This document shows positions 7,373-26,823 of a stretch of DNA of 30,062 bases, piece after piece (position 1 is the stretch's first letter; each line of letters begins with the position of its first letter). Source of the DNA: Actinomycetes bacterium (GTDB taxonomy: Bacteria > Actinomycetota > Actinomycetes > JAHEKZ01). Under the pieces are notes generated by a model, which was not told where the DNA came from, did no database searches, and was given only the letters and a program-made list of their open reading frames with translations. Location: positions 1 to 30,062 of the forward strand of contig JANLWJ010000542.1 of assembly GCA_031364455.1 (NCBI GenBank), read 5' to 3'. The position numbers were made by a program, and so were the translations under genes.

Positions 7373-7494
7373 GCGGCCACACAGAGTGACCCACCCCACA
7401 GACAGACGGGTCGTATCGGCTCGACGGCTCGCGCGAAGTGCCCCTTTTCCCCTAGAGTGTGCCCGTCGGCAGTCGCACCTCCCGGGGGTAGCTC

Positions 7495-8863: not shown

Positions 8864-8874
8864 TCGAGGCCTGC

Positions 8875-8921
8875 GATTGGAACCTAGGGGGTTCCTGGTG
8901 CCCCTTAGGTTCCAATCACGG
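8875..8921. repeat. Palindrome copy A (17-bp arms, 9-nt centre)
   Basis: GATTGGAACCTAGGGGG-ttcctggtg-CCCCTTAGGTTCCAATC-acgg; arms are reverse complements with one G/T mismatch. Related to 16730-16776. Confidence 0.85.
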
Positions 8922-9017
8922 CGGGTCCGCACCACCCGGCTGGCGGATGCCACCGGGGCTCGGCGTCCGCGATCCTTGATTGGTTGGGGACCAGTCGATG
9001 TGTAGGGGGACAGGATC

Positions 9018-10421
9018 GTGGGGGGACGTCGTTGGCGCGCGCTCGCGGCGTCCGCCTGTGCCGCGATGGCGCTGCTCGTGCTGCAGCCCACCACCGCCAG
9101 CGCGGTCGCTGACACGACACCGCCGAACCCGCCAACGATCACCGGGCCGAGCGGCCGCGTCGCATCGACGAGCGCCGACATCTCGGTGACGCGGGCTGAC
9201 CCATCCGACACCGTGCTGTGCTTTGCCGACGGCATCGAGGTGAATTGCCCCGGCTCGTGGACGATCAACGGCCTCGACGAAGGTGCGCACACCGTCACAG
9301 CCACCTCCTACGACGCCGCCATGAACGAGTCCGCCACGGTGTACGTCTACTGGGTGGTCGACTCCATCGGGCCGGTCGGCACGACGATCGCGCCGAGCGG
9401 ACTCACGACGAATGCCACCGTCAGCTTCAACGAGATCGTTGCCGGTGTCTCTGCATCGTCTGTCCGACTGGTTACGGACGCAGGGAGCGCGGTACCGGCA
9501 AGCAGATCTTGTGTGACCAACACTCTCGAGGCGACACCCTGCGGCAGCGCGAGCGTGCGCAAGGTGCTCCTCAAGCCAGACGCAGGCTGGGTTCTCGGTG
9601 AGCGATACCGAATTCTCGTGAACCCGGTGGGCGCAGCGACTGTCGCCGACGACCTCGGCAACATCGCCGCCGCAACGAACTCCGCGTTTCGCGTGCAGAC
9701 CTGGACCGAAGAGCTCGGTGCCACCTACACCTGGCGCAAAGTCACCAACGACAAGGCACGAGGTGGTTCGTACCTGGTCGAGCGACGCCAGGGAGCGAGC
9801 GCGACCTGGTCGTTCAGCGGCGGATCACTGACGTGGGTAACCATGACCGGCCCGGCACTCGGAAAGGCCGAGCTCTACGTCGACGACACGCTCCGCGGTA
9901 CGTACAACAACTACAGCGAGCGCGTGCGGTTTGGTGTCGAGCGATCGCTGACCGGTCTTGGTGCCGGGCAACACGTCGTCGAGGTGCGCGCGCTCGGCAA
10001 GAAGGGCGCCCGTGCCGGGACGGGAACGCTCGTTGCCGTGGACGGCTTTGTCACGGCCAGTGGCAGTGATGTCGCTCCGGTGGTCGCGCAGACGTGGCAG
10101 CGCACCGACAACGCGAACGCGTCCAACGGCTACTACTCCATCGCCGACCTCGGCAGCCAGACGGCGTCGCTTACGTTCCGCGGCACAGCCGTAACGCTTC
10201 ACACCGCTGTTGGTCCGCGGTTCGGCGAGGTGGCGCTCTTCGTCGACGGCGAGCTGGCCAAGACCGTGGACCTCTACGCGCCGGCGGTGGCGTTCGGCGA
10301 GCAGGTGACGGTCTCCGGCCTATCCGATGCCCGCCACACCCTCGAGTTACGCGTCCTGGGTTCGAGCGCAGCTGCGTCCGCCGGGACAGGTGTCGTGGTC
10401 GATCGCATCAGTGTCGGGTGA
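9018..10421 (+). CDS. Secreted modular protein: Ig-like domains plus two jelly-roll (carbohydrate-binding-like) repeats
   Basis: Signal peptide ending TTASA. DTTPP..P.IT and L.EGAHTVTATSYDAAMN.S (bacterial Ig-like). FNE.V..V...L...YRILV (SbsA-type Ig). Two repeats of A.LTF.G..V....GP..G...LYVDG.....L....H.LE.RVLG. Confidence 0.8.
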   Translation: MGGRRWRALAASACAAMALLVLQPTTASAVADTTPPNPPTITGPSGRVASTSADISVTRADPSDTVLCFADGIEVNCPGSWTINGLDEGAHTVTATSYDAAMNESATVYVYWVVDSIGPVGTTIAPSGLTTNATVSFNEIVAGVSASSVRLVTDAGSAVPASRSCVTNTLEATPCGSASVRKVLLKPDAGWVLGERYRILVNPVGAATVADDLGNIAAATNSAFRVQTWTEELGATYTWRKVTNDKARGGSYLVERRQGASATWSFSGGSLTWVTMTGPALGKAELYVDDTLRGTYNNYSERVRFGVERSLTGLGAGQHVVEVRALGKKGARAGTGTLVAVDGFVTASGSDVAPVVAQTWQRTDNANASNGYYSIADLGSQTASLTFRGTAVTLHTAVGPRFGEVALFVDGELAKTVDLYAPAVAFGEQVTVSGLSDARHTLELRVLGSSAAASAGTGVVVDRISVG

Positions 10422-10490
10422 CTCCTAACCACACGCACTCGAAGCCCCACAACGTCAACCGGCTGTGCACTCGCCGCGCTCGGGAGCGCG

Positions 10491-12545
10491 TCAGCCCAGA
10501 CGGTCGGGGTCGGCCGCAGGGAGGATGTTGCCACCGAGGTCGGCCACTTGGACCTCCTCGTACGGAGCGGTCAATGGGTCAAGAGATGCACGCGGCGCCG
10601 TGAGCGGGTCGAAGGCGGGTCGCGGGGCTGGTGGCGTCCATGCCACGCCGGCCGGCGAGAACTCCTCGCCCACCGGCACTTCATCGACAGCAGTAAGCGG
10701 CACATCGTCGTCGAGGCCGAAGCGCGCGCCCGAAGCGGTATCGGACGGCAAGAGATCAACCTTTGGAAGACGGTGGCCGTACGGCGAGATCGCGTCGGCG
10801 AGCGGGACCCCGGCCGAGCCGCCGATCACCTTGTCCTCGGCAGGCACGACGGTTGAGAGCACCGGAGCGTCGCTCTTGGTCTCCTGCTTGCCCTCGCGGG
10901 CGACGGTGCTCGAAGAGACTGACACCGTCGGTGCGTCGGACGCGTGCACGGTTGCGGACGCCGCCGAACGCGGCGCGGGTTCTGGCGCGGGTTCACGCGC
11001 GGGGGCTGGCGCTGGCGCATCGGCGTCCTTGCCACCAGCGCCGTTCTTGACGGGGTCCACTTTCCCCACCGGGAAGGTCGGCGTCGGCGAACCATTTACA
11101 CCGGGCAACCCGCCGAAACCAGCGGGGATGACCGGTGCGTGGTCCTCGTACTTCCCGCGCGTCTCGGTTGCGCTGTAGTCGTACTGGTAGCCGTAGCCAT
11201 AGCGGTGCGAGTCCGGCCCGCGTGCTGGCGCCATGTTCATGACAAGGCCAAGGATCTTGCCGCCCACCGCCTCAACGCTGCTGACGGCCGTACGCAACTG
11301 CTCGCGGCGCGTCTTGCCTGTCGCAATCACCATCAACGCACCGCCCGCGAGTCGGGTCAGGACAGCGGCGTCAGTCACTGGCAGCAACGGAGGCGCGTCA
11401 ATGATCAGCGTCGCACGCTTCTCGAGGTGGTGAACGAGGTCAGACATCGCCTGGCTGCCGAGCAGCTCCGACGGGTTCGGCGGCAGTGGGCCGGATGCCA
11501 TAACCCAAAAGTTGCCGGTGGCGCCCCACGGCTGCAGCACGTCGTCAACGGTGGCGCGTCCGACGAGGACGTCGGTGAGGCCGGCGCCACCTTCGATGTT
11601 GAGATAGTCGGCGATCTTCGGGCGCCGCAGGTCTGCCTCGATCAGGAAGACCGGCTGACCGGTCTGTGCGATGGTGAGGGCGAGGTTGATCGCCGTCGTC
11701 GTCTTGCCTTCGCGCGGTACCGCACTGGTGATGACGATCGACTTCGGACGGTGGTCGATGTCGACGAACTGCAGGTTGGTGCGCACCTGCCGGAACGACT
11801 CCGCGCGCTTGCTCTGGCCCTGGACGTCGGTGAGCAGCGGTTTCTTCTCTGCGTCCGCCTCGTAGCCGATGACACCGAGTAGCGGCTGATCGAAGTGCTT
11901 GGCCAACGCATCGATCGACTTGAGGCGAGTGTCGAGGGTCTCCAGCAGCACCGCAGCACCGACACCAACTGCCAGGCCGACCAGAAAGCCAAGGGCCAGG
12001 TTGATCATCGTGCGCGGCGAGGACGGTGATGTGGGAAGCGAAGCCGGCTGAGTCGTCTTGATGGTGACCAGGGGGTCTCCACCCGCTGCCGGCACTTCAA
12101 GTTTGGCGACCTCAGCCCCCAGCTGCGCGGCCGTCGAGTTCGCGATCGACTGTGCGAGCGCCGGATTTGGGTCGGTGGCCGAAATCTCCAGTGTCACCGT
12201 GTCGAGCGGGTTGTTAACCTCGATCTGGCCGGCCAGCTGGCTCAGTGACTGCGGCAGCCCGAGGTCTTCCTTGACAGCACCCATGACGCCGTCAGCCGTG
12301 ACGACGTCCACGTAGGACTTCACCCGCTGCTGGGCGAAGTACGAACCGGTGAGTGCTTCACCAACGGCCGAGCCGCCACCTTCGGTGCTGCCGCCATTGA
12401 CCGAGACGAAGGTCGTCGCCGTGGCGGTGTACATCGGAGTGGCCAGCATCGAGGCGAGCGCTGCCGCCATGAGACCGAGGAGAGTGGTCGCCGTAATCAG
12501 GCGCCAACGAGCCCGAAGGATGTCTATGTAGTCCCGCAGATCCAC
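10491..12545 (-). CDS. wzc: Wzc-type polysaccharide co-polymerase / tyrosine autokinase with long Pro/Ala-rich tail
   Basis: Start moved to GTG 12545 (MDLRDYIDILRARW, GGAAGG upstream). Wzz-type N-terminus with two TM helices, ESFRQVRTNL, SAVPREGKTT, EADLRRP, IDAPP and Tyr cluster YGYGYQYDY. Confidence 0.92.
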   Translation of the reverse strand: MDLRDYIDILRARWRLITATTLLGLMAAALASMLATPMYTATATTFVSVNGGSTEGGGSAVGEALTGSYFAQQRVKSYVDVVTADGVMGAVKEDLGLPQSLSQLAGQIEVNNPLDTVTLEISATDPNPALAQSIANSTAAQLGAEVAKLEVPAAGGDPLVTIKTTQPASLPTSPSSPRTMINLALGFLVGLAVGVGAAVLLETLDTRLKSIDALAKHFDQPLLGVIGYEADAEKKPLLTDVQGQSKRAESFRQVRTNLQFVDIDHRPKSIVITSAVPREGKTTTAINLALTIAQTGQPVFLIEADLRRPKIADYLNIEGGAGLTDVLVGRATVDDVLQPWGATGNFWVMASGPLPPNPSELLGSQAMSDLVHHLEKRATLIIDAPPLLPVTDAAVLTRLAGGALMVIATGKTRREQLRTAVSSVEAVGGKILGLVMNMAPARGPDSHRYGYGYQYDYSATETRGKYEDHAPVIPAGFGGLPGVNGSPTPTFPVGKVDPVKNGAGGKDADAPAPAPAREPAPEPAPRSAASATVHASDAPTVSVSSSTVAREGKQETKSDAPVLSTVVPAEDKVIGGSAGVPLADAISPYGHRLPKVDLLPSDTASGARFGLDDDVPLTAVDEVPVGEEFSPAGVAWTPPAPRPAFDPLTAPRASLDPLTAPYEEVQVADLGGNILPAADPDRLG

Positions 12546-12581
12546 AGCGAGTGACCTTCCGGTTGCAGAGCGCCTCGACCC

Positions 12582-12607
12582 CTCTCGGCGCGGGGACGCG
12601 CCGAGAG
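12582..12607. promoter_or_regulatory. Perfect 11-bp stem-loop upstream of wzc
   Basis: CTCTCGGCGCG-ggga-CGCGCCGAGAG, 36 nt upstream of the wzc GTG. Function inferred only. Confidence 0.5.
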
Positions 12608-12680
12608 CACATGCAAGAGCGCCACCGCCGAAATCGGGGGCTCCCCCACCATGATGGCCTATGAACGCCAAAATTGGGAT

Positions 12681-13028
12681 GTGACGCGTGTGACAGAAGT
12701 GACGACTGGGACGTCACCGCGCTTCCGACGTCCGGAATGGGTCGCTCACGTGCTCGACGAGGCGGCCGAACCGCCCCGCGCTGTGCTGCTGCACCTGCCC
12801 TCTGGACGCCGGATCGGCCTCTCCGACACGGCCACCCGGGTCTGGCAAGAGATCGTCGCCTCCGGGGCCGAAGGCGTCCAAGTGGGTGTCATCACCGCCA
12901 ATGTGGCTCCTGAGTACGGGGTGGACCCTACGATCATCACTCACGACGTCGTCGCCCTGCTGGACGACATGGTCGCAGGCGAATGGGTCGAAATGGTTCA
13001 CGAGCACGAGGGGGGTGGGCAAGGATGA
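12681..13028 (+). CDS. Stand-alone PqqD/RRE-family protein
   Basis: AVLLHL.SG..IGLSDTATRVWQEI..ITANVAPEYGV..IITHDVVALLDDM..GEWV fits the PqqD/RRE pattern. Start uncertain (12651-12699). Stop overlaps the next ATG (ATGA). Confidence 0.8.
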   Translation: MTRVTEVTTGTSPRFRRPEWVAHVLDEAAEPPRAVLLHLPSGRRIGLSDTATRVWQEIVASGAEGVQVGVITANVAPEYGVDPTIITHDVVALLDDMVAGEWVEMVHEHEGGGQG

Positions 13029-13996
13029 GTCGCGGAGTCGTTACCGGTGGCATCGTCGGGGTGCTCGCCTTGGGCACCACGCTCCTTGTGGTGCTGGCCC
13101 TGCACCCGGCCCAGGTCGACGTTCCCCCCGTCGCGCCGTTCGAGATCGGGGCGGTCGCCGCCTACGGTGACACCGTCTGGCGGTGGGTCGGCCCCACCGA
13201 CTGCAACGCCGACGCCGACGTCGTCCAGCTGGAACGCAGTGTGGGCGGTGGCGACTGGATCGACAGCGCGATCCCGCTCTCCAACATCTTCGCCATCTCG
13301 TTCGCCGACGACCAACGCGGCCTGGCGACCGGGAACACCAGTGAGTGCGCCCGCGGAGTCGCCGTCACCACAACCGGCGGCCGCATCTGGAAGTACCGCC
13401 AGGACAACCCCGTCCTGCTCGACGCCTGGTTCCAGGGCAGCACCATCTGGGGCATCGAGCGGGTGATCGGTCAACCGGTGCTGGCGGCCTACAAGCTGGA
13501 CAGCCGCCTACGGCTGCGGCCGGTCCCTGGCATCGAACCGATCCAACCCTGCGACGCGTCCGACGGTGTCCCCGACCAGATCGCCTACTGGAACGACACC
13601 ACCGGGCTGCTCTTCTGCGAGAACGACGTCGTGGGGTCGCGCCTAGTCGCGCGCACCACCAACCAGGGCGAGAACTTCGAGCGGCTCGCTGACGACCGCC
13701 CAGCGACCGGCCTCGACGGCGGCGGGTCGGTGCTCGACATGGATGTCACCGGCACCGAGACCGTGTGGCTGCAGATCACCGCCGAGGCCGGATGCAGCGA
13801 GGGCCAGCTGCGGGTGAGCGACAGCCAGGGGGCGGTCTTTGCCCGGCTGCCGTGCCCGTCGAAGTCGGTGGAGATCAGCGAGGTCCTCGATGTGGCGTTC
13901 ACCAACGAGACCGACGGAGTCATGCTCGCCCTGCTCAACCGTGAGCCAGTGATGTACGTGACCAACGACGGCGGCGCCTCCTGGAGCACCAACTAG
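13025..13996 (+). CDS. Membrane-anchored Asp-box (BNR)/YCF48-like beta-propeller
   Basis: ATG 13025 overlaps the upstream stop. One N-terminal TM helix. Asp-box-like TTTGGRIW, TTNQGENF, SDSQGAVF, TNDGGASW, plus ISFADDQRG and VAFTNETDG. Six Cys. Confidence 0.75.
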   Translation: MSRGVVTGGIVGVLALGTTLLVVLALHPAQVDVPPVAPFEIGAVAAYGDTVWRWVGPTDCNADADVVQLERSVGGGDWIDSAIPLSNIFAISFADDQRGLATGNTSECARGVAVTTTGGRIWKYRQDNPVLLDAWFQGSTIWGIERVIGQPVLAAYKLDSRLRLRPVPGIEPIQPCDASDGVPDQIAYWNDTTGLLFCENDVVGSRLVARTTNQGENFERLADDRPATGLDGGGSVLDMDVTGTETVWLQITAEAGCSEGQLRVSDSQGAVFARLPCPSKSVEISEVLDVAFTNETDGVMLALLNREPVMYVTNDGGASWSTN

Positions 13997-14004
13997 CCCC
14001 TCGG

Positions 14005-14063
14005 TGAAAACTTACCCAGCGTTTCGAGCGCTGTGCGGCACCGAAAGGGCGGGTAAGTCTTCA
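14005..14063. repeat. Long-loop inverted repeat between convergent genes (possible terminator or REP-like element)
   Basis: TGAAAACTTACCC (14005-14017) and GGGTAAGTCTTCA (14051-14063), 12 of 13 complementary, 33-nt spacer. Confidence 0.55.
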
Positions 14064-14144
14064 GGACGCCAGCGCGGACGCCACCGAACGGAGCTCGCCC
14101 CGGGCGCGAACCATCACCTCACGTGGAGCGAGAAAGGAACAGGG

Positions 14145-14753
14145 TCAGTGCGAGCTGCGGCGACGCCGAGTGGCGATCACCAGCAGGAAGCCTGCACCGA
14201 GCAGAACCGCTGCCACCAGAACAGTTCCGGCGATCTCGCCACCGGTACGCGGCAGGCCGCCACCGAGGAACGGGACGCCGCCAACTGCATTGGCGTCGTC
14301 ACCTGAGCCGTGGCCGGAACCGTTCTCGCCGTTGCCGCCGTCATTGACTGGGACGACATTGTCGCCCACAGCGGTGACCGTCACGTCCGCCGAAAGGGAG
14401 AGGTCTTCGCCTGTGTCGGAGGTGCCCGACATGGTCACGCGGTTGACACCGGCAACGGTGAAGGTGACCCTGCTGGTTGCGATGCCCTTCTTGTTGGCGG
14501 TCGCGCTCGAGGTTCCGACCGACTCGCCGCCTTCACTGACGTCGACGGCCACGGCAGAGCCGGAGCTGAAGGTCTGTGCGGTAAACGTTACGGAGCCGCC
14601 GACCTTGGCATTGAACGAGGTCGCGGTGATCTGGTAAAAGACCGGCGGATAGTCGGTCTCGGCGTTCGCCGGAGCCATCCCCATCGGCATCGCCAGGACA
14701 GCAAAAATCGCCGCAAGAGACATACCGCGACGCAGTGTCTTGGTGCCGAACAC
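14145..14753 (-). CDS. Small sortase-anchored (LPXTG) surface protein
   Basis: Start moved to GTG 14753 (ATG 14723 is an alternative). Signal peptide ending APANA, one Ig-like beta domain, Gly/Asn linker, then LPRTG, hydrophobic helix and RRRR tail. Confidence 0.88.
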   Translation of the reverse strand: MFGTKTLRRGMSLAAIFAVLAMPMGMAPANAETDYPPVFYQITATSFNAKVGGSVTFTAQTFSSGSAVAVDVSEGGESVGTSSATANKKGIATSRVTFTVAGVNRVTMSGTSDTGEDLSLSADVTVTAVGDNVVPVNDGGNGENGSGHGSGDDANAVGGVPFLGGGLPRTGGEIAGTVLVAAVLLGAGFLLVIATRRRRSSH

Positions 14754-14884
14754 TCCGCACCCCCATCGTTTGCCAGACCCGGTGCAGTACGCCCCGAGCA
14801 CTCGTAACGTTCGCGCGAGGCCAGCCAAAAAGCCGGACCCGTGCATCGACTCGCCCAGCCTAGCGGCATATGGGCCGTTTGCGG

Positions 14885-16669
14885 CTAGTCGGCGCTGCAC
14901 GTCCTGGTGTCGGCATCCCGGGTGATGGGCTTGACCAGGGGCGTCACGAAAGTGGTGATCTCCCCTTCGGTGGGCGGTTCGGCCACCTCGAAGACCAGCG
15001 TCGTCGACTCGCCCGCCCCCAGCTCGATTCCAGACTGGAAGACGGCGTGCCCCTGCTCCCTTCCCTGGGCAACGTCCAACAACTCGCCGTCCCGTATCGC
15101 GCTGACCAGGGACGATCCTGCGGTGGCGTACACCTGAGAGTAGAAGAAGCTGTCGCCGTTCCCGTTCTGCAACTGCCCGTCCGGTCTCGGTGGCAGGTCT
15201 GCCCTGGCGGCGACGTAGAGCGGCAGGCTGTCATCGCCGGGGGCGCTGTTCTGGTAGGTCACCGTGATCTGCCCGCGCCGCCCGCCGTCCGCCGTGCACC
15301 CGATCAGCTCGTAGGTCAGTGACTGGTAGAGGTAGTAGTCGAGCTTGTTGCCGCCCCCGTTGATTGTGGCCAGCCCGGCGAAGGGCGCCGCGTCCCCCGG
15401 CAGTGCCCCGCCCACCGAGGACGCCGCCAGCTGCTTCTGCTCATTCACCTGATCGGAGTACACCAGCAGCCGGCGCTCCCCGGCCGCCTTGCCCAGGGCG
15501 TCGATCAGCGCCTTCGGGTCTGCCTCCCCCGAAAAGACGGCGTCCAGCGAAGCCTGAGCCACCGTCTGCAGGTACGCGTCCCGCTCGGCGTCATCGTCGA
15601 TCAGGAAGTAGATCTCGTTCTCGGTGAACGAGACGACGTTCTCGGACGAGATCACCCGCCCGTCCGGCAGCGTTACCGGCCCAGTGGCCTCCAGCAGGTA
15701 CGACAGCGTGACCGGGTCTGTGGTGACCACGCCGTCGAGGCGCTCACCGGTGCGGTCCTGCCACATCTTCAGCCACAGCTGGGCGGCATAGGGGTAGTGC
15801 GGCGACATGTTGGCGCCGGCCCACGTGGCCGGGTCGTCGCCGTAGAGGGCGTAGTAGTCGGGGCCGAAGTCGAGCGGCAGCTCGTCGTACTGCTGATCGT
15901 CGAGCGTCGAGCGCGGCGCCAGCTGCCGCACGTCGACGCGTCCGTCATCGGCGGTGATGACGCCGAACGAGCCGAAGAAGCCACCAGTTCCGCGCGCCTC
16001 GTTGTTCGACTGCAGCGCCAGGAAGTAGCTGCGCCGACCGTCGGCGCCCATCATCGGCGGGATCAGCTTCGCGCCGCGGACCGCAGACTGCGTCTCGGCC
16101 AGCGCGTCGTCCAGCTCGGTCTGCAGACCGCTTACGGCGTCCTGCACCTTCGCAGGCGTGCCGTCGGTCTCGATGCCGGCGACGTCGGCGGTGATCGCTC
16201 CCAGGGACGCCTCCGCCGACTCAAGGGCCGGAGCCGCCTGCTCGAACGCGTCGAGGTTGAGCTGATCGCCCGCGGCGCGCAGCGAGTCGGGAGTGAGCGC
16301 GGTTCCGGCCGCGACGAGATCGGGCAAGGCGTCCTGCGCGAGCGCGTCGGCGGCATCGGCAACTTCGCTGACCGCCGCCGGCGTTGCCCCGATCACCGGG
16401 ATGGCCGACGCGATGGTGAAGACCAGGTCGCTGGTGGCGTCGGCCGCGCGGGAGGTATCGCCCTGGACAACGGCCAGGTGCTGGGCGGCGTCGTCGGTGC
16501 GGCCGTCCGCGAGGTCTTCGCGCACCAGCGTGACGCCGGCGCGGGCACTGGTGAGCGCATCAGCGGCCTGCTGCCCCTTGACGTAGATCCAGACTGCACC
16601 GACCACGAGCACGGCAACCATGACCACCAAGAGGAGCAGAAGTCGGGAGCGGCGCGTCACACGTCCCAT
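14885..16669 (-). CDS. DUF4012 domain membrane-anchored protein
   Basis: Start ATG 16669. N-terminal TM helix, long amphipathic helices, LQSNNEARGTGG, ANMSPHYP, DGVVTTDPVTLSYLLEATGPV, NKLDYY. Confidence 0.88.
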   Translation of the reverse strand: MGRVTRRSRLLLLLVVMVAVLVVGAVWIYVKGQQAADALTSARAGVTLVREDLADGRTDDAAQHLAVVQGDTSRAADATSDLVFTIASAIPVIGATPAAVSEVADAADALAQDALPDLVAAGTALTPDSLRAAGDQLNLDAFEQAAPALESAEASLGAITADVAGIETDGTPAKVQDAVSGLQTELDDALAETQSAVRGAKLIPPMMGADGRRSYFLALQSNNEARGTGGFFGSFGVITADDGRVDVRQLAPRSTLDDQQYDELPLDFGPDYYALYGDDPATWAGANMSPHYPYAAQLWLKMWQDRTGERLDGVVTTDPVTLSYLLEATGPVTLPDGRVISSENVVSFTENEIYFLIDDDAERDAYLQTVAQASLDAVFSGEADPKALIDALGKAAGERRLLVYSDQVNEQKQLAASSVGGALPGDAAPFAGLATINGGGNKLDYYLYQSLTYELIGCTADGGRRGQITVTYQNSAPGDDSLPLYVAARADLPPRPDGQLQNGNGDSFFYSQVYATAGSSLVSAIRDGELLDVAQGREQGHAVFQSGIELGAGESTTLVFEVAEPPTEGEITTFVTPLVKPITRDADTRTCSAD

Positions 16670-16729
16670 CGTCGCATCCGACGAACGGCGCACGGTGCAC
16701 CCCCGCAGCAACACCCAGCCAGCCGCTGT

Positions 16730-16776
16730 GTTGGGAATCTAGGGGGGACTAGGGGCCCCCTAGATTCCGATCACGG
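16730..16776. repeat. Palindrome copy B (13-bp perfect arms, 9-nt centre)
   Basis: GGAATCTAGGGGG-gactagggg-CCCCCTAGATTCC-gatcacgg between divergent genes. Aligns without gaps to 8875-8921. Confidence 0.85.
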
Positions 16777-16883
16777 GCCTGGCGCGGCGTGCTGGGCTCC
16801 GCTCAGTTGTGCCAACGCCCGGCCGCGGTGCCCCCTGAGGGGCTACCGTCAAACCCGGCTCAGGGCCGAGCAGGGGGTACACG

Positions 16884-17960
16884 ATGGCGAGCACGACGAC
16901 GAAGCGTGCAATGACGGCTGCCGTCGCAGTGGGTCTGGCCGCCAGCGGTGTCCTCGGTGGCGGTGTGGCCGACGCCGCCGGCGGCACCACCTGCACGCCG
17001 ACCACCCGCACTCTGAACACGCTGACGTACTCCACTCCCCAGGCCCTGAGCCCTCGCGGGCACGTGGTCGCCGACGAGGCGAGCCAGGGGGCCAGTGACG
17101 GTCTGTGGCTCCATCGCCCCGACGGCACCAAGACGGCAATCGCGTTCGACGACGGAACGAGGCCGACGACTGCAACCGACGTGAGCGCCCGTGGAGCGAC
17201 CGTCGGATCCGCTGTCCGCTACCCCACCCTCGGCGCCCTTCGTGGCTGGATCAGCACCGGGGGCTCGGCAACCTGGTTGCCAGAACGCACCAGCGCTAAC
17301 TCGTTCGTGGCGCAGAGCGTCAACGGCTCCGGAACAGTCGTGGGAGTCGACAGCAACATCACCACCAGCCTCCCGGGCGAGACCGACTTCTTTGCCGACC
17401 CGATCGTCTGGGCGACGAGCGCGAGCTTGCCGCAGAGTCTCCCGGTGCCAACCGGCTTCCACGCCGTCGCGTTCGACCGCGGCGAGCCCTTGATCAGCAT
17501 CCGCGCTGACGGGCTCGTGTCTGCTGTCTTAGTTGACCAGACCAACGGCACCTACCTCGCCCGCTGGGCGACCGCGACGAGCACGCCCACCCTGGTTGCG
17601 ATCCCCCACGGGCTTGCGCCGACCAGCGTTGCCGGTCGTTGGGTGGTGGGACGCGTCGGCAGCGACATGTTTGTCTTCTCGCCCCAGGCAGCCGTGCGCT
17701 TGCACGCAGCCAACGCGATCACCGGGATGCACGTCAGTGCCAACGGGACGTACTCGGCGCTACTCGGACCTGGATCGATCTTCGGTCGCGGTCTCGGAGC
17801 GCCTCTAGATGGCATCCAGCTCTATGCCTCCGTTGATGTTGCGGGGGCGAACAACGGGTCTGCAGTCCTCGACACTGCAACGGGTGTCTCGGTGCTGACC
17901 TGCGCCTTGGGGTTGTCCGAGACCTCCTACGTGGACGTCACCCCGATCACGCTCAGCTAG
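16884..17960 (+). CDS. Secreted Thr/Ser-rich protein, probable HAF-repeat-like beta-propeller
   Basis: Signal peptide ending VADA. Repeated blade-like motifs ATDVSARGATVG, AQSVNGSGTVVG, ISIRADGLV, MHVSANG. Confidence 0.65.
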   Translation: MASTTTKRAMTAAVAVGLAASGVLGGGVADAAGGTTCTPTTRTLNTLTYSTPQALSPRGHVVADEASQGASDGLWLHRPDGTKTAIAFDDGTRPTTATDVSARGATVGSAVRYPTLGALRGWISTGGSATWLPERTSANSFVAQSVNGSGTVVGVDSNITTSLPGETDFFADPIVWATSASLPQSLPVPTGFHAVAFDRGEPLISIRADGLVSAVLVDQTNGTYLARWATATSTPTLVAIPHGLAPTSVAGRWVVGRVGSDMFVFSPQAAVRLHAANAITGMHVSANGTYSALLGPGSIFGRGLGAPLDGIQLYASVDVAGANNGSAVLDTATGVSVLTCALGLSETSYVDVTPITLS

Positions 17961-22290: not shown

Positions 22291-22366
22291 CGCAGGGAAT
22301 CCACCACTGGCGGATTTCCTGCGATCCAGAGCCCTGCAGAGCCCGAAAACCGCAGGGAATCCGCCA
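22291..22366. repeat. BIME/REP-like element copy 1 (three 16-bp arms, forward-reverse-forward)
   Basis: CGCAGGGAATCCACCA-c-TGGCGGATTTCCTGCG-N27-CGCAGGGAATCCGCCA. Confidence 0.9.
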
Positions 22367-22413
22367 CAAGGGCGCGTCGCGAGCGAACGAGCGCCCTGAG
22401 GTGACCTGACACC

Positions 22414-23031
22414 ATGAACCCCATGCACTCCTCGGACGCCGAACCGGCCAGCCGCGGCCGGGTGAGCGCGCCGACCACCCCGGTGCGGGCCTTCGGCCGC
22501 GTGGCAACTGAGTGCGCCCTCGGTGGCATGTTCTTCGGCGGCCTCTTCGGCGCAGCTGTTGGCGTCGTGTTTGCGGTCGTGGCCGGCATCGACCTGGGTG
22601 CTGAGGGACTCGGGGCCACCGCCGCCCTCATGGTCGCCGGCGCCCCGTCCATGGCGCTGATCGGGTGCGTGGTCGGCATCGTGCTCGGTCTCGGCTACGG
22701 AATCGCGGTCGGCGTCGGGACGGGTGCCGCGATGGCTGCCGTCGCAGGCAACCGGCGCGCTCACTTGCCGGTCGGACCCCTTCGCCTCGTGGCCGCGCTC
22801 GCCGCGGCGCTGAGCGCGTTGATCGGCGTCACGTCCGTCATGCTCCTCAACGGCGGTGGCCGGGCCTCACTCGCCGACGAGCTCCCGCTCGTCTTGACCG
22901 TCCTGGTGGTGTTCGTCCTGGCCCCGGCGCAATCGCGGCGGGGTTCGCCGCGTGGCGGTCCTCGGGGTGGATACCGCCCGTCGAGGACGCCGCCGCACCC
23001 CAGCGGCGCTGACCGCCCACGGTCGCGGTGA
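22414..23031 (+). CDS. Gly/Ala-rich multi-pass membrane protein, function unknown
   Basis: ATG 22414 with GAGG upstream. Four or more hydrophobic segments with GxxxG runs. Lies between repeat copies 1 and 2. Confidence 0.65.
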   Translation: MNPMHSSDAEPASRGRVSAPTTPVRAFGRVATECALGGMFFGGLFGAAVGVVFAVVAGIDLGAEGLGATAALMVAGAPSMALIGCVVGIVLGLGYGIAVGVGTGAAMAAVAGNRRAHLPVGPLRLVAALAAALSALIGVTSVMLLNGGGRASLADELPLVLTVLVVFVLAPAQSRRGSPRGGPRGGYRPSRTPPHPSGADRPRSR

Positions 23032-23064
23032 TCCCGACCGCCCACAGATCGGTCAGCGTCCCTT

Positions 23065-23139
23065 CGCAGGAATCCACCACTGGCGGATTTCCTGCGTTCC
23101 AGAGCCGGACAGAGGCCGAAGACCGCACGGAATCCGCCA
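23065..23139. repeat. BIME/REP-like element copy 2
   Basis: CGCAGGAATCCACCA-c-TGGCGGATTTCCTGCG-N27-CGCACGGAATCCGCCA. Spacer is 21/27 identical to that of copy 1. Confidence 0.9.
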
Positions 23140-23233
23140 GTCGACAATTGTCCACACCGTCGGTGGACGCGGTGCGTCCCCAGATCGGTTGCCGCGTGCC
23201 CGCAACCCCGCCGGCCGTGGCGACGCTTCGTCC

Positions 23234-24340
23234 ATGCCCCGTCCGCTACCCGCCCCAGTGCTCGCCGCCATCGCGGCACGACACGGAGTGATCACGCGCC
23301 AACACCTGCTGAGCCTCGGAGCCAGCGAGAGGAACATCAGCACCTGGGTGCGACGCGGCCAGCTGCGACGACTGTCCGTCGGATGCTTCGCGGAGTCCGC
23401 CCGGTGGGAAGGCGCCGCACCGACCTTGCGGCACACCATGCACGTCTACGGAATCCAACTGAACTCTCCCGACGTCGTGGCCCGATGTGAAACGTCAGCC
23501 GTTACCTGGCAGCTGCCGGTCCGCAGCATCCCCGACCGGCCACAGGTGGTCCGCGCCCCGAACCGTGCACACCTGAACAGTGCGTCCGTGCAACGGCGGC
23601 ACCTGGATCCCGGCCACGCCGTCATGCGAGGTGGTCTCACGACGTTGACGCTGGCGCACACCGTGGTCGATGTTGTCGCTGTCGCCCCCCTTCCTGATGC
23701 GCTGATCACCGTGGACGCGGCACTCCGTGGTGGCCTCCAGCTCACCGACCTCGACGCTGCGATCCGCTCACGAGGCACCTTCACCGGCTGCAGCAACGCC
23801 GCAGCAGCCATCGATGCGGGCGATCCGGCATCGGAGTCCCCCCTCGAGTCGCTCTCCCGAGGACGCGTCATCGAGCGCCGGCTTCCACTTCCCTTGTGCA
23901 ACGTCGTGATCAGGCACCAGAGCAGGGAAGCGCGCGTCGACAAGCTGTGGGCCGAGGACGGTGTCGTCGGCGAGGCCGACGGCAAGGGCAAGTACTCCAA
24001 GGACGACGCCCCGACGGTGATCTGGAAGGAGAAGCGCCGACACGAGTGGCTGGAAGAGCTGGGGTTCGCTGTCCCCCGCTGGGGAATGCCCGAGGTCGGC
24101 GACGACGGCGCTGCCCTTGAGCGCCGCTACCGGAAGGCGGTGGCTACGCAGCGGGCGGTGGGATTCCGGTGGCCCGATGGGGTGACCATGGAGGTGCAAC
24201 GGATACCTGGCGTCGAGCTGCCAGCCCGCGTGCTGGCTGAGGTGCAGCGCCTGGCGGCGTCCGGCTACCCGATCAGCATCGTGGACGCGCCCCGGCGTCC
24301 TGGCGGATCTCCTGCGCTTTGGACGCCGATCAGCGCCTGA
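23234..24340 (+). CDS. AbiEi-type wHTH protein with C-terminal PD-(D/E)XK / DUF559-Vsr-like nuclease domain
   Basis: Start moved to ATG 23234. RHGVITRQHLLSLG..WVRRGQLRRL (AbiEi-like), T.LAHTVVDV, DAALR, then SESPLES, RVDKLW..VVGEADGKGKY, EKRR..LEELGFAVPRW. Confidence 0.82.
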   Translation: MPRPLPAPVLAAIAARHGVITRQHLLSLGASERNISTWVRRGQLRRLSVGCFAESARWEGAAPTLRHTMHVYGIQLNSPDVVARCETSAVTWQLPVRSIPDRPQVVRAPNRAHLNSASVQRRHLDPGHAVMRGGLTTLTLAHTVVDVVAVAPLPDALITVDAALRGGLQLTDLDAAIRSRGTFTGCSNAAAAIDAGDPASESPLESLSRGRVIERRLPLPLCNVVIRHQSREARVDKLWAEDGVVGEADGKGKYSKDDAPTVIWKEKRRHEWLEELGFAVPRWGMPEVGDDGAALERRYRKAVATQRAVGFRWPDGVTMEVQRIPGVELPARVLAEVQRLAASGYPISIVDAPRRPGGSPALWTPISA

Positions 24341-24359
24341 AATCGCAGGCAATCCGCCA
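24301..24359. repeat. BIME/REP-like element copy 3 (two arms), overlapping the AbiEi-nuclease stop codon
   Basis: TGGCGGATCTCCTGCG-N27-CGCAGGCAATCCGCCA. Confidence 0.88.
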
Positions 24360-24425
24360 ATCTGCGCTGGACGCCGGTGGCCCGGTCTGCGCCGCCGCGT
24401 CTGTCAGACGGTGCGGCTCCGTGAC

Positions 24426-26298: not shown

Positions 26299-26823
26299 TC
26301 ATGTCTCACTCACCGGACAATTCGATGTTGATGAGCCATCCAGGGCTCCGATCGCCGCGATGACATCGGCCGTGCGGGGCTGCCCGACCGCCCGCTGAGC
26401 AACGGCGCCAAAGGCGTCCAGCACGAAGACGGTCGGCGTGCGCATGACGCCCCACCGACGTACGAGGTCGAGGTGCGCCTCGGCGTCCACCTCGACCGCG
26501 ACAACGCCGTCGACCATCTCGGCCACCTCCGACAGCACCCTTCTGGTTGCGCGGCATGGCTGGCAGAACGCGGTGGAGAACTGGATGAGGGAGGCTCGCT
26601 CACCCAGCTCGATGCCCAGGTCGGACGCCGGAAAGACCGGCCCCCGCTGTGGCGACACGGCACCGGACGCAGTGCCGGACGCCGGGTCGGACGCCGGGTC
26701 GGACGCCGGGTCGGAGACGGCCGGCACCGCGCGCAGACGGCCGTCGGTCCGCCGCCGCCAGAGACCGAACGCCGTGGCCGCGGCGAGCACAACCACGAGC
26801 ACGATCAGGCCGACGTTGTCCAC
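26299..26823 (-). CDS. thiX: Membrane-anchored thioredoxin-like protein (ThiX/Rv0816c-like)
   Basis: N-terminal TM helix, QFSTAFCQPCRAT, TPTVFVLD..G. Confidence 0.85.
   Translation of the reverse strand: MDNVGLIVLVVVLAAATAFGLWRRRTDGRLRAVPAVSDPASDPASDPASGTASGAVSPQRGPVFPASDLGIELGERASLIQFSTAFCQPCRATRRVLSEVAEMVDGVVAVEVDAEAHLDLVRRWGVMRTPTVFVLDAFGAVAQRAVGQPRTADVIAAIGALDGSSTSNCPVSET
26677..26712. repeat. 12-bp perfect tandem repeat x3 inside thiX linker
   Basis: GGACGCCGGGTC x3, encoding DPAS x3 on the minus strand. Confidence 0.9.

Follow-up and report, generated by a model that had tools for sequence, protein, structure and literature searches.

AbiEi antitoxins recognise 23-bp inverted repeats, arranged in pairs, in the promoters of their own genes. 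The two repeats bound by AbiEi of Streptococcus agalactiae lie 3 bp apart, and Rv2827c of Mycobacterium tuberculosis binds repeat pairs of the same length that are 13 bp apart and situated at most 131 bp from the start codon; in sites of this family one monomer occupies each arm (PMC7319586). A different partnership of palindrome and protein is represented by the repetitive extragenic palindromes (REPs), which are linked to genes of RAYT enzymes (Bertels & Rainey 2011, PMC3116915). Here we compare with these systems two palindromic elements, copies A and B, in a 30,062-nt stretch of DNA from an Actinomycetes bacterium (the window; GenBank assembly GCA_031364455.1, contig JANLWJ010000542.1, positions 1 to 30,062 of the forward strand). 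The analysis suggests that copies A and B are probably orphan, gene-less members of a REP-like palindrome family that is tied to a decayed gene for a nuclease with an AbiEi-type head.

An earlier note, made from the window alone, had described a 47-nt element that occurs at 8875-8921 and at 16730-16776, and had read it as the operator of a dimeric regulator or as a bidirectional promoter that ties the two ends of the locus into one regulon. Both 47-mers are present as described. A count by hand gives identity at 14/17 positions in the left 17 nt, 18/21 in the right 21 nt and 4/9 in the centre, and the compensatory swap at arm position 5, where copy A has C/G and copy B has T/A, is real. The palindrome is longer than the 47-mer, because a left CTGYG pairs with a right CACGG, giving a 55-nt unit in which two inverted arms of about 21-23 nt flank a 9-nt centre. 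The pattern GGAAYCTAGGGGG-N9-CCCCYTAGRTTCC is found in the window only at these two sites, with none expected from 100 dinucleotide-preserving shuffles.

Copy A (8871..8925, plus strand; 70.6 bits with the covariance model introduced below) consists of core arms at 8879-8891 and 8901-8913, a loop at 8892-8900 and outer arms at 8871-8878 and 8914-8921. It starts 8 nt past the stop codon of an HprK-like kinase-PqqD gene and ends 93 nt ahead of the GTG at 9018. Copy B (16726..16780, plus strand; 66.1 bits) has core arms at 16734-16746 and 16756-16768, which are complementary at all 13 of 13 positions, and a loop at 16747-16755. As had been noted, both copies are situated about 95-105 nt upstream of genes (9018 and 16884) whose products have a signal-peptide-like N-terminus. 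Copy B does lie between divergent genes, with one correction: the DUF4012 gene on the minus strand most likely starts at the ATG at 16669 and not at the GTG at 16714 that begins the longest open reading frame (ORF), judging from its translation and from alignment with the relatives G009 and G003. The protein begins MGRVTRRS, followed by a membrane helix, and this start is conserved in both relatives. With the start at 16669, copy B sits in a 214-nt spacer between the DUF4012 gene and the secreted-protein gene that starts at 16884.

The 55-nt units are predicted to fold as RNA at -37.0 kcal/mol in copy A (z -5.9) and at -34.3 kcal/mol in copy B (z -4.9). No intrinsic terminator was found at either copy, where the hairpin is present with no T-run after it, and Rfam 15 gave no match at its gathering threshold anywhere in the window. 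Two further signals that had been proposed did not hold up. The TAGRTT hexamers, taken for -10-like elements of a bidirectional promoter, are merely arm sequence, and a scan for the sigma-70-type promoter consensus found none at copies A and B. What had been taken for a half-site, at 7449-7456, is an isolated CCCCTAGA 8-mer that lacks a partner arm; chance alone would give 0.64 such 8-mers per window.

The source assembly (G000; 3.03 Mb, 65% G+C, 569 contigs, with the window as contig C163) was searched for further copies by mismatch-tolerant searches, an nhmmer profile and a covariance model (R1). By these methods it has exactly five copies on four contigs, all of them intergenic, and those outside the window are situated at C59:1283-1337, C462:5425-5479 and C48:2374-2428. 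The arms, a 9-nt centre of varying sequence and a directional 3' tail are common to all five. The C462 copy is found 3' of holA, facing rpsT in a convergent arrangement, and the C48 copy within another convergent gene pair. A holin-like gene and an AbiEi-type nuclease gene flank the C59 copy; the other four copies (A, B, C462 and C48) are gene-less. A sister species, G008, has syntenic counterparts of the three non-window copies. The scan of the genome and its relatives that the earlier note had suggested thus returns five copies in G000 and three counterparts in G008, and the element turns out to be a low-copy form of the generic REP-like repeat, with some copies at 3' ends, that the note had named as the finding contrary to its proposal.

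The covariance model gave no convincing match in the other congeners among the 13 examined. Neither 185,579 species genomes nor the metagenome contigs contained a match to the exact pattern, and a mismatch-tolerant scan of 40 relatives returned a single one, the holA/rpsT copy of G008; the sequence is therefore lineage-specific. The orthologous copies of G000 and G008 are 78, 76 and 65% identical, and their flanks 31-72%. A reading of copies A and B as att-like direct repeats bounding a 7.8-kb cassette was rejected, since they are 77% identical and the other copies stand alone.

Comparison with congeners reveals a site without the element. G007 and G002 share the HprK-like kinase-PqqD gene and an orthologue of the 9018 gene (76% and 65% identity, respectively), without copy A, which appears in the alignment as a 55-nt gap in their orthologous spacers. 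The distance from the stop codon to a conserved block, ACCACCCGRCTGGCGGA, is 67 nt in G000, 12 nt in G007 and 6 nt in G002. The region upstream of the 9018 gene outside the repeat (8926..9017, plus strand) was aligned for G000, G007, G002 and G004; the blocks ACCACCCGRCTGGCGGA and ATCMTTGATYGGTKRGGG are kept in 4/4 genomes whether the palindrome is present or absent, and the remaining spacer drifts. Because the blocks are kept without copy A, the ancestral control of the 9018 gene would lie downstream of the palindrome and be independent of it, and 8926-9017, as the probable ancestral upstream region, is the more likely seat of the native control of this gene. The two blocks themselves are candidates for the native promoter, operator or leader of the 9018 gene family. 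The idea of a regulon tying together the two ends of the locus is not supported, given these upstream blocks, which G007 and G002 keep without copy A, and the three copies in unrelated places.

The holA/rpsT copy is confined to G000 and G008 among 11 congeners, and a parsimonious account would be that the element was gained in the G000/G008 lineage. The holA-rpsT spacer as a whole is about 190 nt longer in these two genomes than in nine congeners, so that the 55-nt palindrome makes up only part of the extra length; the rest is poorly conserved between G000 and G008 (C462 5340-5610 in G000). The site of copy B provides no such empty counterpart: G009 and G003 have the DUF4012 gene, and the adjacent secreted-protein gene is about 43% identical, with a spacer that cannot be aligned.

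The copy on C59 links the family to a gene. The ORF whose ATG follows this copy after 133 nt encodes an AbiEi_4 winged-helix domain (E 3.8e-8), and a second ORF in a different frame has similarity to MTES_1575/DUF559, the gene region spanning C59 1470-2277. The genome has nine AbiEi_4 genes, and the probability that at least one of them would have any of the five copies at a distance of 300 nt or less is about 0.009. The order contains intact orthologues, about 300 aa in length; that of G007 has 301 aa. A profile built from nine orthologues matches the DUF559 'endonuclease-like protein' PDB 3HRL (E 3e-4) and the Vsr-like 'mobile intron protein' PDB 3R3P (E 1e-3), and the nuclease-domain residues D229, E240, H247 and D256 are invariant among the nine. 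These similarities point to an AbiEi-type head fused to a Vsr/DUF559-like (PD-(D/E)XK) endonuclease domain. A DUF1814 toxin partner was not seen; the next long ORF, which is convergent and has a secreted-protein-like start, was not scanned against Pfam.

Relative to the intact G007 orthologue, the gene in G000 carries a 101-nt frameshifting deletion. The G008 gene has the same deletion junction with further loss, which indicates that the break predates the divergence of the two from their common ancestor. An 81-aa ORF for the winged-helix head has survived and is open in both genomes. Its ratio of nonsynonymous to synonymous substitution rates (dN/dS) is 0.32, with 17/33 changes nonsynonymous (binomial p 0.006 against neutrality), a value that comes from only 59 codons. 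By analogy with the AbiEi antitoxins and the paired 23-bp repeats of their promoters, we infer that the head of the C59 protein recognises this palindrome.

The orthologous locus of G007 is informative in this respect. At the same spot, upstream of the intact gene, it has the palindrome GGAACGAAATCCG-N9-CGGATTTCGTTCC, in which the outer GGAAC/GTTCC and the 9-nt centre are kept and the inner arm differs from that of G000. Between the G000 and G007 proteins, the head domain is 41% identical and the nuclease domain 79%. Head and inner arm have thus changed together, as would be expected of a cognate pair; an alternative source of the same pattern would be exchange of the domain by recombination. 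About six tandem units of about 19 nt (CCGCCGTCCCACCGCAC-like) occur between the G007 palindrome and the start of the gene (~880-1010), and they are absent from G000.

Association with palindromes extends to other AbiEi_4 genes. By a criterion of arms of at least 12 nt, with one mismatch allowed, at most 350 nt upstream, a strong palindrome precedes 5/9 of the AbiEi_4 genes encoded by G000, as compared with 4% of 600 random 350-nt windows. The AbiEi_4 genes on C531, C148, C96 and C276 have private palindromes with arms of 17-21 nt, located 120-225 nt upstream, and these differ from the five-copy family. In the genome, the palindromes of C531, C148 and C96 are found at 6-7 places, and the C276 palindrome only once. 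The C531 gene has its palindrome on both sides, and so do the relatives of the C59 gene in G006, G012 and G018, three other genomes of the order, each with palindromes of its own. One sister AbiEi_4 gene is situated in the window (23234-24340, within the region 22296..24360, plus strand) and is flanked by a different palindromic repeat. This 71-nt repeat, 90% identical among its copies, is found at 22296-22366, 23069-23139 and ~24290-24360, bracketing a small membrane-protein ORF and the AbiEi_4 gene; it has an outer motif, GGAATCC...GGATTTCC, that is similar to the ends of the five-copy family, GGAAY...RTTCC. Elsewhere in the window, about four copies of a 12-nt tandem repeat, CGGACGCCGGGT, occur at 26664-26711 within an ORF-rich region.

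Pairing within the five-copy family was assessed on eight sequences, the five G000 copies and their three G008 counterparts. In this alignment 82.8% of the cells pair, 5/19 pairs show changes on both sides, and the covariation score is 0.226 as compared with 0.152 in shuffles, 3/500 of which reach the observed value. In each of the five copies, the aligned strand folds more stably than its complement. This asymmetry owes much to shared ancestral G-T positions, so that the five copies are not independent evidence. The symmetry of the element is maintained, and from these data a hairpin, in RNA or DNA, cannot be told apart from a symmetric site for a protein.

The observations can be combined in a scheme in which the home copy, upstream of the C59 gene, would be the putative site read by the head of its product. 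The family may then have spread, via the nuclease, to a few intergenic sites in the G000/G008 lineage, after which inactivation of the partner gene by the 101-nt deletion would have orphaned the copies. Copies A and B can form very stable hairpins in RNA or in single-stranded DNA; copy A may act as a secondary barrier at the transcript end after the kinase-PqqD gene, and copy B may present an obstacle, as bound protein or as hairpin, in the divergent promoter region.

Other explanations compete with that of an orphaned REP-like family. The five palindromes might be working operators, bound by a dimeric regulator that co-regulates the secreted-protein and DUF4012 genes, and this regulator could be the 81-aa winged-helix remnant of the C59 gene. 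Their geometry matches that of AbiEi-family sites, the head ORF is still open in both genomes under an apparent constraint, the copies in the window lie about 100 nt upstream of genes for signal-peptide-like products, with copy B in a divergent promoter region, the arms are most nearly perfect in A and B, and conservation between orthologous copies somewhat exceeds that of the flanks. However, congeners keep both the gene pair and its upstream blocks without copy A, indicating that the element was not part of the ancestral control of the gene; two copies lie between convergent 3' ends, where there is no obvious target for an operator; perfect arms of 13-21 bp exceed what a base-specific half-site usually needs; and the dN/dS value stems from those few codons. 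We regard this explanation as unlikely. What stands of the operator proposal of the earlier note is the geometry, which fits AbiEi-type sites for two monomers, and the presence of a candidate cognate protein; its restriction to this locus does not stand. Copies A and B do not appear to have been built as a locus-specific operator, and any effect on the secreted-protein genes would be secondary. A related proposal, that purifying selection has kept the 81-aa remnant and that it now serves as a small repressor reading five orphan palindromes, two of them ahead of secreted-protein genes in a cell-surface locus, strikes us as improbable. If true, it would mean that a selfish repeat-plus-nuclease element had been domesticated into a small regulon, close to what the earlier note had guessed.

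Somewhere between these two in likelihood, and doubtful in our estimation, is the explanation that the copies are duplicated RNA hairpins without a protein partner, selected as transcript-end barriers, mRNA stabilisers or terminators lacking a U-tract. The very stable folds (z about -5 to -6), the preference for the aligned strand in all five copies, a G-U pair on the plus strand of copy A, the two-sided changes at 5/19 pairs with covariation above shuffles, and the position of A, C462 and C48 after the 3' end of a co-directional gene are all consistent with such a role. It is weakened by the lack of a U-tract, by the empty terminator scan and the absence of an Rfam match, and by the B and C59 copies, which lie between divergent starts with nothing to terminate; the strand asymmetry comes largely from the shared ancestral G-T positions, and the adjacency to the AbiEi-nuclease gene and the private palindromes found across this class of genes would be left unexplained. 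Most improbable of all is an origin as a miniature inverted-repeat transposable element (MITE) of an insertion sequence, or as a REP mobilised by a RAYT-type Y1 transposase, with the parent missing from the assembly. A short, dispersed, low-copy intergenic palindrome with a unit-sized presence/absence difference is what such an origin would leave, and insertion sequences may be missing from an assembly of 569 contigs. Yet no target-site duplication is seen at the five junctions, no longer element in the assembly has these arms as terminal repeats, and the exact-pattern scans of other genomes are empty. A RAYT partner in particular was considered and rejected, as the single PF01797 (Y1_Tnp) gene lies on C100 and no copy of the repeat is found on or near that contig.

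Several observations also weigh against the orphan-family explanation itself. The partner gene was broken before G000 and G008 split, yet no other copies have kept the palindrome as well as A and B, whose arms also show the greatest similarity among the paralogous pairs (35/42). This hints at later copying or at selection; later copying, selection for a hairpin or continued binding by the remnant of the head would each explain it. No target-site duplication was seen at the five junctions, nor was any transposition intermediate. The nuclease assignment is based on sub-threshold Pfam scores and weak PDB profile matches, and the palindrome lies only upstream of the C59 gene, not on both sides, in G000 and G007 alike. 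That copy A was gained, and not precisely lost in the others, is argued by parsimony, without a rooted tree. Finally, the G007 palindrome is a singleton, which a plain autoregulatory operator fits as well as a mobile repeat does; because it occurs once, simple autoregulation may be the basic state of the site, and the scattering an addition peculiar to one lineage.

For the locus in the window, the palindromes provide no evidence that the peptide-modification and surface-polysaccharide genes form one regulated unit. As to known systems, a search for papers linking DUF559 with palindromes or with AbiEi found none that describes a partnership between a repeat and a winged-helix/Vsr-like nuclease. 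The AbiEi operators (PMC7319586, PMC3985639) are similar in the N-terminal winged helix of AbiEi type and in the inverted repeats of about 23 bp, here with a gap of 9 bp, as well as in the location of the site about 130-190 bp upstream of the start of the protein's own gene, which holds for the C59 copy only. They differ in that copies A, B, C462 and C48 are not in the promoter of an AbiEi-domain gene, and in that the C-terminal part appears here, judging from its sequence, to be a nuclease fold instead of an antitoxicity domain. The same part, being MTES_1575/DUF559-like, sets the C59 protein apart from the AbiE type IV toxin-antitoxin systems, whose toxin, a DUF1814 nucleotidyltransferase, is encoded after AbiEi. 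The Vsr-like homing endonuclease I-Bth0305I (PDB 3R3P) is connected through the nuclease-profile match (E 1e-3) and has a fold used by selfish site-specific cutters; the similarity is weak, however, the DNA-reading domain is different, and there is no intron or intein context here. A MITE would share terminal inverted repeats with a parent insertion sequence and have a target-site duplication; here no duplication is seen at the five junctions, and the assembly, from which a parent could be missing, contains no longer element with these arms.

The REP/RAYT systems (Bertels & Rainey 2011, PMC3116915) differ in several respects. Their enzyme is a Y1 transposase of the IS200/IS605 type and not a winged helix with a Vsr/DUF559-like nuclease; their repeats number tens to hundreds, in contrast to five copies here in 3.03 Mb, where a 55-nt repeat should assemble despite the fragmentation; and the C59 gene has its repeat on one side only. 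On the other hand, they share with the present family the short, hairpin-forming imperfect palindromes scattered through extragenic space, the privacy of each family to one linked enzyme gene, with several paralogues per genome that each have repeats of their own, and the unit-sized presence/absence differences among relatives. The present case would thus add to the partnerships of repeat and enzyme in high-GC bacteria one that resembles REP/RAYT and employs a winged-helix/Vsr-like nuclease. It contributes a site where relatives differ by the presence or absence of exactly one unit, a geometry like that of operators, by which the head would be the part that reads the repeat, two orthologues whose head and inner arm have changed together and whose nuclease domains have stayed similar, and a view of what remains of such a partnership after the death of the enzyme gene.

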